Of a DNA stretch of 64,000 bases, positions 42,687 through 46,767 are shown piece by piece. Every line of letters begins with the position of its first letter. Position 1 is the stretch's first letter. The stretch spans positions 768,001 through 832,000 of the forward strand of contig CAWBNQ010000003.1 of NCBI GenBank assembly GCA_963790205.1. The letters are read 5' to 3'. This stretch comes from Nitrospirota bacterium. Its GTDB lineage: Bacteria; Nitrospirota; UBA9217. A program made the translations under genes and the position numbers. Under the pieces are notes generated by a model. That model saw only the letters and a program-made list of their open reading frames with translations, made no database searches and was not told the origin of the DNA.

Positions 42687-42900
42687 GATGTTCATGATCC
42701 TTTTCTTTTTCTGCACCGCCGCTCACAGCTCCGCGCAGACATGCCAGGATATCTTCTGTTTTACGTGCCAGTACGGCAGCCCATGAGCGCTTACGCTGCG
42801 CACGCGCATGCATGATCTGTGGTTCACCGGGCTCTCTACCGGGCATGTAAAACGCGTCCCTGTTCACGGGATGCAGGGGCTTCGGGAAAAGCAAAGACGA
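42687..42900 (+). repeat. Dispersed repeat family A, long copy
   Basis: Colinear similarity to 34595-34800. Confidence 0.9.
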
Positions 42901-42944
42901 AAAAACCTCTGCCTTCCCGTGCGCCGGACGGGACCGCGAAGCGG

Positions 42945-44321
42945 CTATTCCGGTTCTGAAAGCTTCCCGAAGGCCTTGAGCACGACTTCCGAGAGCGCCG
43001 GGTGGATGTGCATGCCCTTGGCCACGGCCCAGAGGTTGCCGTCAGCCGCCATGACGTTCACCACTTCCTGGACAAGGACCGACGCCTGGGGACCGATGAT
43101 GTGATAGCCCAGGATCTTTCCGCTTTTTCGGTGCACCACGGCCTTGGTAAACCCCTCGATCTCCCTCATGGCCTCGCCGCGGGCCACATCGGTGTACATC
43201 GCCTTGCCCACGAGGACCTCCTGTTTTCCCATGAGCTTGACGGCCTCTTGTTCCGTCAGGCCGACGGACGCTATTTCGGGATAGGAAAATACGGCGTGCG
43301 GCACCGTGAGGTAGTTGAGCCGCGACTTCTTGCCGTGCACCGCGTTGTGCCACACGAGCTCGGCCTCATGATTGGCCGAGTGGCGGAACATCTTCTTGCC
43401 GATGGCGTCGCCGAAGGCCCAGATGTCCTTTTTTGCGGTCTCGAAGAACTCGTCCACGACGATATAGCCCCGTTCGTCTGTTTTTATACCGCTCTTTTCT
43501 ACTTTGAGAAGGTCCGCGTTCGATTTCCGCCCGCATGCCAGAAGGAGATACTGCGCAGAATGCTCGAGACGCTTTCCATCGCCGTCCCGGGTAATAACAA
43601 TGACGCCGTGGTCGCTGTTTCTGGCATCGACGACCTCGGTATTGGTATGGACTTCCATCCGGCGGCCGAGCGCTTTTCTCAGCGCTTCCGATACTTCGGG
43701 CTCCTCTTCGGGGACGAGCCGCCTGTTTCGCTGGAAGATCGTGACCCTGGTGCCCATGGCTTCGAAGAAATGGGCGAACTCGGCCGCAATGTATCCTCCG
43801 CCTATGATGATCATGCTCTCGGGCCGTTTCGTGAGCTGCAGGGCGCTCTCGTTCGTCAGGTAGGGGACGGTTTCGATGCCCCTGACCGAAGGGACGAAGG
43901 GACGCGCTCCGGAGACGAGGAATATGGTCCTGCCCCTGATCTCCTGGCCATTTACTTCGAGCGTATAGTCGCCGGTAAAGTGCGCTTCGCCGAAATAGAA
44001 ATCGAAGTCCTCGGCCTTCTCCAGGGCCTCCTTGATGCGGTCATGGGTTTTCTTGACGTGCTTGCGCATCGAGCCCATGATCGCGGCAAAGTCTATCTCC
44101 TTGATCTCGGCCGTAATGCCGAACTTTCCCGCTTCCCTGATCTCAACGATTCTATCCGCCGGATAGACAATGAGCTTGGTGGGAATTCAACCGACGTTCA
44201 GGCAGGTGCCTCCGAGCGGCCCTTTGTCCACGAGGGCCACGGTCTTGTTATGGGCGAGGGTGTCCTCGACCAGGTTCGCCCCGGCGCCGGAGCCGACGAT
44301 GACCACATCGTATTCTTTCAT
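42945..44321 (-). CDS. Class I pyridine nucleotide-disulfide oxidoreductase (LpdA/mycothione-reductase-like), 458 aa, probable selenoprotein (Sec45)
   Basis: IVGSGAG FAD motif; GGTCLNVG-TGA-IPTK in frame with GGGYIAAE, AFGD, HIHPALSE; SECIS-like hairpin just downstream. Confidence 0.85.
44142..44174 (-). promoter_or_regulatory. Candidate bacterial SECIS element
   Basis: mRNA UCUAUCC-GGC-GGAUAGA stem with G-starting loop 27 nt after UGA; lower CUCA/UGAG pairing. Confidence 0.7.
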
Positions 44322-44407
44322 GAGACCGCCTTTCAGAGGTGAGCGAACTTTTTCAATTCTATCATGTTTGCGGCAAGAGTCAATGCGGGGCCGGGAGGAC
44401 GGCGCTC

Positions 44408-45361
44408 TCACAAAAATTGCAACGTGATCACCCAGCCCCTGAGGTCCTTGTCGAACAACGGTGATATTGATATGTTCTGCAGGCCGTTGCCGGCGTCTTT
44501 TTCCTTGTGATACTTGGCGACGCCCATCCCGGCGAGGGTGCCCACGGTAATGCCGGCGATCACATCGGAGAGGAAATGCTCGTTGGCCTGGATCCTCGAC
44601 GCCCCGATAAAAGCCGTGGTCAGATAGAGCGGGACCGCGATCCTGAGGTCCCAGTCGTACATCTCTGAAATGGAAGCGGCCATCGTGGCGGTTATCGAGG
44701 CATGGCCGGAAGGGAAGGAATTGAGGTTTCCTCCGTTCGGGCGTTTCCTCCGCGCCGTCAACTTCAGGCCCTCCGTGGCGAGCCCGTCGATAACATAAGC
44801 TTCCAGCGAAACAACGCCGGTGTCGGCCAGTTTTTTATTGTTTATCAGTTCTCCCGCGCCCAGGAGCGCAAAACCCACGCCGACTTCCGGATAGCCGTTG
44901 CCGATCTTGTCCCCGGTATTCTCGACGTGCTCCAGGGGTTTTCTGTCCTGGAAGTATTTCTTGACCCTCTGGTCCACCGTGAGAGCCAGCCCGGTCAGCC
45001 CCGCTCCGATCAGCGCGAGCGGAACATTATCCTTGGAAAATATTCTTTCCGCTCCGCCCACGACATCGGGGACGAACTCTTTGACGTAGGCGCCGAAAGA
45101 CGGGACCGTCGCCCTTCCGGCGTCAGGCTGTTCGGTCGATGCAGTCTGCTCCCGTTCCGCTGTTTTGAACGGGTCAGCAAGGGTATACGCAACGGTCAAG
45201 ACAGGAGCGCTGGATCGTTCATCCCGGTCCATGGACGGCCGGCCGACGGGTGCATCGAGTCCGGGATCGCCGGTAAATCCATACACGGTCCCGGACGAGA
45301 GGATCACCAGACCAGTAAGAAGTACGACCAGGAAGCGGTATGATTGACGGGTAGTCTGCAT
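44408..45361 (-). CDS. PAP2-family phosphatase
   Basis: KLTARRKRP, SFPSGH, SRIQANEHFLSDV. Confidence 0.88.
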   Translation of the reverse strand: MQTTRQSYRFLVVLLTGLVILSSGTVYGFTGDPGLDAPVGRPSMDRDERSSAPVLTVAYTLADPFKTAEREQTASTEQPDAGRATVPSFGAYVKEFVPDVVGGAERIFSKDNVPLALIGAGLTGLALTVDQRVKKYFQDRKPLEHVENTGDKIGNGYPEVGVGFALLGAGELINNKKLADTGVVSLEAYVIDGLATEGLKLTARRKRPNGGNLNSFPSGHASITATMAASISEMYDWDLRIAVPLYLTTAFIGASRIQANEHFLSDVIAGITVGTLAGMGVAKYHKEKDAGNGLQNISISPLFDKDLRGWVITLQFL

Positions 45362-45567: not shown

Positions 45568-46767
45568 TTGAGGATTCTTTTGCACGACCACATCGTTAAA
45601 TACACGAACAAACTGCTTCGCGACCGGACCGCCGTGCCGGAGAGCATCCGGTTCTACGTGCTCGACGACCGGGTGGTCACGAACCGCGAGGATGAATGGC
45701 TGCCGGTTTTCGCTGCAGTTTTTAAAGGCCTGGACGTCACGGCCCTGCTCTTTGCGAAGACCACGCTTCCCTTTGCCGACCTGCTGGTGGAGCGTGCTGA
45801 TCCCGGGTCGGACCGGCTCGTTCCGAAGGACAGCGAAACGAGGGTCTTCCTCCATGACATCCCGTTCATACGGGAGTCTGAGCGGTCTGGAAAACCGAAA
45901 ACAGCGCTTGCCGAAATGATCATCCGGTGTTTGAAAGAGCGGAAGGCGGTCATCATCCAGGGGCTCGGCGTGGTCGCTTCGGGCGGAGTGACGGTCGAAC
46001 AAGCGTTCATCGGTTTTTCCTCCATCTTTCATACTACCTTCGTAAAATATCTCCTGGACCTTCTGACAGAGGGCTTCAGGTTCCCGCGGGAGCGGAACGT
46101 CGTCGAGGCGTATCAACGATCGAACCCCGGGCCGCGGGACCTGGGCGACCTCGTGTTTACCCCGGGCCCGATAGCGGACCGGCAGACGATCATGAGGGAA
46201 ATCTGCCGCGTCGGACGTTATACCGTCGAGAAGGGGTACGTGGATTCGTTTTTCGGCAACATCAGCTATTTCGACGGGAAAACGATCTTCATCAGCCAGA
46301 CCACGTCGTCGCTGGACGAGCTTGAGGGCTTCATCGACCCCGTGCCGCTCGACGGGTCGTCGACTGCGGGCCTATCGGCGTCGTCCGAGCTGCCCGCGCA
46401 CCGCGGGATCTATGTTTCCTCGGATTATCATGCCGTTTTACACGGTCATCCGAGATTCAGCGTCATCATGTCCATGCACTGCGAAGAAGAGAACTGCGGG
46501 ATAGAGGACTGCAACCGTTTCTGCGACCGTGACCGCTCGGCTTGCGGCGTGCCGATCGTTGCCGGCGAGACCGGCGCGGGCGGACTCGCAAGATCCGTCC
46601 CCCGTGCGATCAGGGATACGGGCGTTTGCATCGTCTACGGGCACGGCATATTCGCGGCCGGGAAGACCGATTTTCACGATGCCTTCATGAAGATGGCGGA
46701 CGTGGAAAACCGCTGCAGGGAAGAGTATTTCAGACTGCTTGAAGAACGTCCAGAGTCCGACGTTTGA
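45568..46767 (+). CDS. Class II aldolase/adducin family protein
   Basis: FGNIS, SASSELPAH, LHGHP, IVYGHG. Confidence 0.8.
   Translation: MRILLHDHIVKYTNKLLRDRTAVPESIRFYVLDDRVVTNREDEWLPVFAAVFKGLDVTALLFAKTTLPFADLLVERADPGSDRLVPKDSETRVFLHDIPFIRESERSGKPKTALAEMIIRCLKERKAVIIQGLGVVASGGVTVEQAFIGFSSIFHTTFVKYLLDLLTEGFRFPRERNVVEAYQRSNPGPRDLGDLVFTPGPIADRQTIMREICRVGRYTVEKGYVDSFFGNISYFDGKTIFISQTTSSLDELEGFIDPVPLDGSSTAGLSASSELPAHRGIYVSSDYHAVLHGHPRFSVIMSMHCEEENCGIEDCNRFCDRDRSACGVPIVAGETGAGGLARSVPRAIRDTGVCIVYGHGIFAAGKTDFHDAFMKMADVENRCREEYFRLLEERPESDV

Follow-up and report, generated by a model that had tools for sequence, protein, structure and literature searches.

In mammalian thioredoxin reductase, selenocysteine (Sec) is carried by a C-terminal tail remote from the flavin, while both redox residues of the CxxxxC centre are Cys. 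The single Cys of CoA-disulfide reductase faces the flavin, and the catalogued Sec form of such enzymes is therefore a predicted earlier case of selenium next to a flavin. In mycothione reductase (Mtr), Cys39 attacks the substrate and FAD passes electrons to the proximal Cys, according to the available text of PMC10910545. Here, a window of 64,000 nucleotides from a Nitrospirota genome (contig CAWBNQ010000003.1) was found to encode a reductase of this type with an in-frame TGA at the position of the proximal Cys. From the comparison of sequences, we consider it highly probable that UGA45 encodes Sec in an uncatalogued selenoprotein form of class I disulfide reductase. The features of the locus, in window coordinates, are the following.

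42945..44321, minus strand: class I flavoprotein disulfide reductase gene, 458 aa, with one in-frame TGA (translation, NF004947, PDB matches)
44187..44189, minus strand: TGA codon 45, predicted Sec at the flavin-proximal Cys position, C40-x4-U45 (orthologues, assemblies, Mtr alignment)
44202..44204, minus strand: TGC codon 40, substrate-attacking (interchange) Cys (Cys in 90/90 family rows; aligns with Mtr Cys39)
44280..44294, minus strand: FAD-binding GxGxG, G10, G12 and G14 (G10 and G12 in 90/90 rows, G14 in 89/90)
43779..43802, minus strand: NAD(P)H-binding GGGYIAAE, residues 174-181 (translation, family alignment)
43719..43733, minus strand: QRNRR, residues 197-201, with Gln at the acidic position and Arg198 (family alignment, Mtr comparison)
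42987..43004, minus strand: C-terminal His440-Pro...Glu445 acid-base pair (aligns with Mtr His442/Glu447; family alignment)
44151..44167, minus strand: bSECIS-type hairpin UCUAUCC-GGC-GGAUAGA (in 23/23 TGA genes and 3/50 Cys genes; consensus fit)
44356..44383, minus strand: sigma-70-like promoter TTGACT-16-TAGAAT with extended TG (consensus match only)
44326..44333, minus strand: purine-rich stretch resembling a ribosome-binding site 5′ of the ATG (seen in the sequence)
42897..42920, minus strand: terminator-like hairpin 3′ of the stop (consensus match only)

Around the codon, the sense strand (the minus strand of the window) reads GGC ACC TGC CTG AAC GTC GGT TGA ATT CCC ACC AAG. The initial annotation had placed this TGA at the second Cys of the family motif and had the frame run on to a complete 458-aa protein. 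Both points hold: the minus-strand letters and the alignment agree on the position, and translation of 44321-42945 on the minus strand with TGA taken as U gives 458 residues, with U45 as the sole recoded step and a terminal TAG. The TGA at 44189-44187, within GTCLNVG*IPTK, is the only internal stop. An ordinary ORF scan yields just the downstream 377 aa, which is also the length of the window's protein in databases (P0002), and five relatives are shortened likewise. The intact gene is probably a single-gene transcription unit. The promoter and terminator are to be taken as hints only, because the scan found three promoter-like sites with 0.8 expected and three terminator-like sites with 2.6 expected.

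As a check of the codon, we compared contigs of four of the 20 sequencing runs listed (X1-X4); no RNA run containing this DNA was found. Codon 45 is TGA in contigs from three runs of two studies (X1 and X2 from one study, X3 from a second), and no listed X4 piece lies across it. The X1 and X2 contigs cover 43752-44500 with two differing letters each, at 44261 and 44437, and the X3 contig covers 43990-44250 with no differences. The presence of TGA in these independent contigs and in 23 distinct orthologues leads us to reject a sequencing or assembly error.

The orthologues were drawn from 110 loci; after keeping those with at least 38% identity and residues 40-60 covered, and removing duplicates, 73 remained. 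Codon 45 is TGA in 23 of them and TGC or TGT in the other 50, and the column is Cys in all other family members. The 23 TGA orthologues, 60-84% identical to the window protein, contain no second stop. As judged from its substitution pattern, the reductase gene is shown to be under purifying selection, with an uncorrected pN/pS of 0.18-0.42 against 20 other TGA genes.

The TGA is followed by a hairpin with its 5′ arm at 44167-44161, its loop at 44160-44158 and its 3′ arm at 44157-44151. The initial annotation had described a perfect 7-bp hairpin with a G-led loop, 27 nt after the UGA. The structure is as described, but the stem begins at base 20, after a spacing of 19 bases, and it is the loop G that is base 27. 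According to the part of PMC13188914 available, bacterial SECIS elements have a loop of 3-9 nt, a stem of 4-16 bp, a G in the first two loop positions, a distance of 16-37 nt from the UGA and a minimum free energy of −7.5 kcal/mol or lower. The hairpin described here has a 3-nt GGC loop, a 7-bp stem, a 26-nt spacing and an energy of −12 kcal/mol for 50 nt (−6.7 for the bare 17-nt hairpin). The stem formed in all four folds tried, and the folding energy is unremarkable by itself (z −0.8 to −2.0). A stem of at least 6 bp with a GG-led loop of 3-4 nt follows 1252 of the 146,323 TGA trinucleotides of the genome (0.86%), compared with 0.83% after TGC. No Rfam family matched at the reductase locus.

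The decisive support for the hairpin is comparative rather than energetic. At least six of the seven stem pairs can form in 23/23 TGA genes versus 3/50 Cys genes, the pattern of TGA/Cys alternation with a conserved hairpin that the initial annotation had named as a check. Among genes that encode YPADR at this place, the codons are TAT CCG GCG GAT in 21/21 TGA genes and 0/25 Cys genes, with about 1% per gene predicted from codon usage. In 21 full-length TGA genes, 5 of the 139 amino-acid-invariant columns are also codon-invariant and three of these five lie in the hairpin; in 32 Cys genes, the corresponding number is 0 of 106. These counts overstate the case because the relatives are not independent, and we therefore attach no probability to them. 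The outer stem pair varies between UA, CG and UG across 18 chosen TGA genes while five pairs are constant. As the hairpin is almost invariant, covariation is thin: one of the seven pairs compensates, with a score reached by 18 of 500 shuffles. Outside the hairpin region, no alignment column clearly separates the Sec and Cys forms. One of the three Cys genes with at least six stem pairs (L081) can form all seven pairs in matching register, owing to a substitution of Cys for Tyr with a corresponding change on the 3′ side.

Of 36 genomes from the host's family, 33 have an orthologue (E 1e-100 or better), and of 24 from other Nitrospirota families none has one. The named relatives are Nitrospirota MAGs, and remoter Cys forms occur in Bacillota, Chloroflexota, Aminicenantes and archaea. 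The TGA motif pattern is present in 27 of 401 Nitrospirota genomes; besides the host itself, these comprise 26 of 63 family genomes. It is found in 0/337 Nitrospirota genomes outside that family, with a reversed control of 0, and in 0/351 genomes in the phylum of an Aminicenantes relative. Among at least 119 pattern matches in metagenomes, 47 belong to this family, 14 to the PRK06370 subfamily and 13 to other family members, and 45 are unrelated. All 47 members (38 distinct) have the hairpin, and there is no premature stop in the DNA available for them.

These distributions bear on whether the gene is a pseudogene or nonsense allele, or whether its real product is the 377-aa protein that gene callers start at Met82. 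The 377-aa database entries for the window gene and five relatives speak for such a reading, and 3 of the 13 metagenome TGA matches in other subfamilies are broken. However, a protein of 377 aa would have neither the FAD-binding motif nor the two redox residues. Codon 45 is TGA in 23 distinct orthologues with no second stop, pN/pS is far below 1, the codon-level conservation of the TGA genes is concentrated in the hairpin, and the pattern is missing from both outside sets of genomes. We regard both readings as extremely unlikely and Sec at codon 45 as the better account.

When the Sec column was masked in a FastTree analysis of 119 proteins, the Sec/Cys label changes 12 times on the tree, at least eight of which are forced by strong branches, compared with a mean of 35 for shuffled labels. 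In the main clade, the branches that split off first are Sec and the Cys groups are nested within, which suggests one gain of Sec followed by several returns to Cys. A paralogous clade with about 48-50% identity (L118, L119, L161, L175, L183, L190 and L257-L259) has the same TGA and hairpin, and Phe replaces the catalytic His440; its Cys-type sister also has Phe. The 14 matches in the PRK06370 FAD oxidoreductase subfamily (11 distinct; L138, L139, L150, L155, L162, L166, L167, L187, L198, L216, L218, L228, L241 and L243) carry TGA at the second Cys, and no premature stop was seen in them. Two subgroups each have their own shared hairpin and the remainder have none, and the best full-length Cys relatives of L166 are just about 73% identical. 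These genes are possibly a second Sec lineage, with error or pseudogenes as the alternative.

The initial annotation had pointed to selA, selB, selC and selD elsewhere in the genome as a check on its reading, and all four are present. In the host genome (98% complete), selA and selB are adjacent, the tRNA-Sec gene is 6 kb away, and selD itself contains a TGA. TGA is the commonest stop of long host ORFs (335/735); recoding at codon 45 is therefore codon-specific. Genome-wide reassignment of UGA can be rejected on this count and from the three paralogues, whose motif has a normal Cys at that place. A point against the Sec reading is that selA and selB were not found in four (G002, G007, G017 and G019; 89, 96, 63 and 86% complete) of the 20 relatives that carry the TGA, whereas all 16 non-carrier relatives have selA. 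Because the two genes are adjacent, one missing contig would remove both. A TGA-type selD is present in G002 and in G007, the latter also with a tRNA-Sec; neither was found in G017 (63% complete) or G019 (86% complete).

Five further host loci (C2:70317, C3:457236, C3:841759, C8:63112 and C9:31788) are likely selenoprotein genes with similar hairpins. We take them to be selD, a peroxiredoxin-like, a rhodanese-like and two HesB-like genes, the names other than selD being assigned from sequence motifs. In the host scan, the matches to selD and to the presumed peroxiredoxin, HesB-like (two) and rhodanese genes have 7-8-bp stems and GG-led loops of 3-4 nt, located 17-20 nt after the UGA. Those of selD and the presumed peroxiredoxin have 8-bp stems with GGU or GGC triloops, 20 nt after the UGA, and the reductase hairpin resembles them in build. 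SelB-directed insertion of Sec at UGA45 is, in all likelihood, how the codon is read.

The host also carries a second tRNA with a UCA anticodon (C1:656899-656993, minus strand; L005:1499-1593), with an 8-bp acceptor stem and U73 before the CCA. The gene lies directly after yedF and is flanked by two LysR genes; these match the selenium-metabolism LysR model best, though with scores under its cut-off. In its available text, the work of Mukai et al. (PMC5389517) describes selC* tRNA-Cys with U73 in Nitrospirae and reports opal suppression in E. coli by a Desulfococcus selC* tRNA; the host tRNA fits this type. UGA45 could thus be read mainly as Cys, giving an ordinary CxxxxC enzyme under selenium-linked control, and the position of the tRNA beside yedF and selenium-associated-LysR-like genes, together with the published precedent, speaks for it. 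However, the presence of the U73 tRNA does not track the TGA form. Besides the host (G000), copies were read in four relatives, two with TGA (G005 and G023) and two with Cys (G010 and G031); four further second tRNA copies in relatives were left out of this reading. Most TGA carriers have a single tRNA-Sec match. The demonstrated system, as given in the available part of PMC5389517, has A1:U72 and a dedicated CysRS*, whereas the tRNA of the host has G1:C72, and its genome yielded only a single cysS and a single selB. The fixation of a SECIS-type hairpin in TGA genes alone argues for SelB-directed Sec, and reading mainly as Cys appears very unlikely to us. Since there is one cysS and one selB and G1:C72 differs from the tested system, Cys insertion by the U73 tRNA is no more than possible. 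A mixed product, in which Cys would stand in under selenium shortage, would be compatible with Sec as the encoded residue; it is plausible, although we think it rather unlikely.

Turning to the enzyme, the best NCBIfam model by a clear margin is NF004947 (587.1 bits, cut-off 592). The class I features are all present: the FAD-binding GxGxG, CxxxxC with the second Cys as U, GxGxxA, His-Pro-x-x-x-x-Glu and a glutathione-reductase-type fold. The nearest structures by sequence and fold are mycothione reductases (8qcj: E 4e-85, TM 0.86), and C40, U45, H440 and E445 align with Mtr C39, C44, H442 and E447. Since U45 aligns with Cys44, which accepts the electrons of the flavin in Mtr, the predicted Sec45 falls at the flavin-proximal position, where the initial annotation had put it. 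In the AlphaFold model, residues 35-46 are placed with low confidence and FAD is absent, so that it is silent on active-site geometry. The models for lipoamide dehydrogenase, mycothione reductase, MerA and glutathione reductase all score below their cut-offs. A C-terminal Cys pair is a feature of MerA; the translation has none, and with 337 bits against a cut-off of 454 this candidate was rejected.

In dihydrolipoamide dehydrogenase, the nucleotide-binding strand ends in an acidic residue that serves NAD+ binding. At this position the Sec rows have Gln197 (34/38), followed by Arg198 (38/38). NADPH use had been proposed from the sequence alone; the Gln and the first Arg of the Mtr RxxxxxR motif, kept as R198, agree with it, but the second Arg aligns with Pro204. 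NADPH is therefore the likely cofactor, on partial evidence. The description of the enzyme as LpdA- or mycothione-reductase-like also stands in part: its nearest structures are Mtr, and it is probably not LpdA, as TIGR01350 is below cut-off.

It could nevertheless be proposed that the selenoenzyme is a dihydrolipoamide dehydrogenase that serves GcvH or another lipoyl protein. NF004947 bears the name dihydrolipoyl dehydrogenase, database names of the Cys orthologues are dihydrolipoyl dehydrogenase or mycothione reductase, and 13 of 81 neighbourhoods contain a gcvH close to the gene but on the other strand. Against this, the protein scores 347.1 on TIGR01350, with a cut-off of 408.8, and a relative has a separate protein that passes the model (524 bits) directly after gcvH, with a counterpart after gcvH on host C5. 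Moreover, Gln197-Arg198 points to NADPH, and the host genome gave no match for a 2-oxoacid dehydrogenase E2. We judge this role improbable and prefer a reductase of another small substrate.

The same host genome (98% complete) yielded no BshC, GshB, GCS2 or Glu-Cys ligase, and GCS2 was also found in 0/12 family relatives; MshC matched only below cut-off, on cysS. From the separate lpd and the failure to find E2 or thiol-synthesis markers, the substrate is probably not lipoamide, glutathione, mycothiol or bacillithiol. The neighbourhoods of 81 loci are housekeeping and variable, with no likely partner or substrate clue. Only degP, addA, typA, an 88-aa ORF and a convergent rnf-gcvH-lpd run recur, each in at most 21 of the 81 loci. 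The rnf-gcvH-lpd run is conserved in L047, L050, L053, L063, L064 and L100 and in the host at C5:478541-485938, with the true lpd and gcvH after the Rnf operon. A gene at 45568-46767 on the plus strand of the window encodes a 399-aa protein whose C-terminal half resembles an aldolase class II domain (residues 209-389), and it is often near the reductase in relatives. Its most likely role may be to maintain cysteine, CoA or another small thiol in the reduced state, glutathione, mycothiol and bacillithiol excepted, or to reduce a small sulfur or selenium oxidant; this is a guess that could fall either way.

A mechanism can be proposed in which SelB, bound to the hairpin, would deliver Sec-tRNA to UGA45. 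The product would be a homodimer that uses FAD and NADPH and belongs to the glutathione-reductase/mycothione-reductase class of disulfide reductases. By analogy with the chemistry of the family, NADPH would reduce FAD, which would in turn reduce the Cys40-Sec45 selenenyl-sulfide via selenium, and the Sec45 selenolate would then stack on the flavin in place of the charge-transfer thiolate. Cys40 would attack the substrate, aided by His440′ and Glu445′ of the other subunit, and Sec45 would resolve the mixed disulfide. Because both forms occur in selenium-using relatives, the benefit of selenium appears to be conditional and the residues interchangeable. Selenium is probably an upgrade in rate or oxidation resistance of an interchangeable Cys enzyme, and the reason it is kept is a guess. 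A wider reading is somewhat doubtful as a whole. Here selenium would occupy the flavin-contacting atom, with direct reduction of the selenenyl-sulfide by FAD and a selenolate-flavin charge-transfer complex. This arrangement would have arisen repeatedly: in two clades of Nitrospirota paralogues, of which one has also lost the catalytic His, and possibly in the separate PRK06370 subfamily. In some hosts, the second UGA-reading tRNA would switch between selenium and sulfur enzyme according to selenium supply.

If Sec is inserted as predicted, natural Sec/Cys pairs of up to 80% identity make directly testable what selenium gives an enzyme. The flavin charge-transfer band offers an optical read-out, next to midpoint potential and resistance to over-oxidation. 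The analysis also corrects an annotation error, by which these genes are stored as 377-aa fragments without the active site. It further points to a small-thiol system of another kind in a group of uncultured Nitrospirota that have no detected glutathione, mycothiol or bacillithiol markers.

The initial annotation had not recognised a standard selenoprotein family here, in keeping with the 119-family table of PMC13188914 (Table 1, 2026), in whose available form there is no class I disulfide reductase and no CxxxxU. The window family is also not among the families that this table, as available, credits to a reference that is likely Haft and Tolstoy 2025. The accessible text and four supplements of PMC12013277 contain no such form, and the ‘putative mercuric reductase’ listed there is a small metal-binding domain. 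No description of a CxxxxU reductase was found in the available parts of PMC9312934, PMC13326102 (BSepDB), the Haft and Gwadz preprint, PMC9335216, PMC8395237 and the Actinomarina preprint. A literature search outside subscription journals returned nothing describing this Sec form, and none of 240 database proteins retrieved has a U, a letter that may be converted in retrieval. The variant is real and absent from the catalogues checked, with Sec insertion strongly predicted from the genomic evidence.

Compared with known systems, the mammalian thioredoxin reductases and thioredoxin-glutathione reductases share the class I fold and are selenoproteins, but the window protein (146 bits on TIGR01438) lacks their C-terminal tail. 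Two bacterial FAD enzymes with Sec for a redox Cys appear in Table 1 of PMC13188914, as available: a CoA-disulfide-reductase-like protein (TIGR03385, UGxP) and a type III sulfide:quinone reductase (NF049943, HxxU). Unlike the window protein, they have no CxxxxC dithiol and no His-Glu pair, and the match of the window protein to TIGR03385 is weak (77.5 bits versus 578.8, residues 134-415). Mtr (PDB 8qcj; available text of PMC10910545) shares the CxxxxC region, GxGxxA, the C-terminal His-Glu pair and the first NADPH-phosphate Arg. However, identity is about 35%, residue 45 is UGA-encoded here, the model scores are below cut-offs (411/501 and 380/636), and the host has no MshC above cut-off. Among the closest are the Cys-type orthologues of NF004947 (PRK06292.2-5, named dihydrolipoyl dehydrogenase), for which the literature examined, as available, held no functional test of the subfamily. 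They belong to the same subfamily and are up to 80% identical within Nitrospirota, and they differ from the window gene, which scores 587.1 and so just under 592, in the TGA and the fixed hairpin. The predicted selenoenzyme would add a selenoprotein family to an enzyme class that is among the best studied, and would do so at a position without a catalogue entry.
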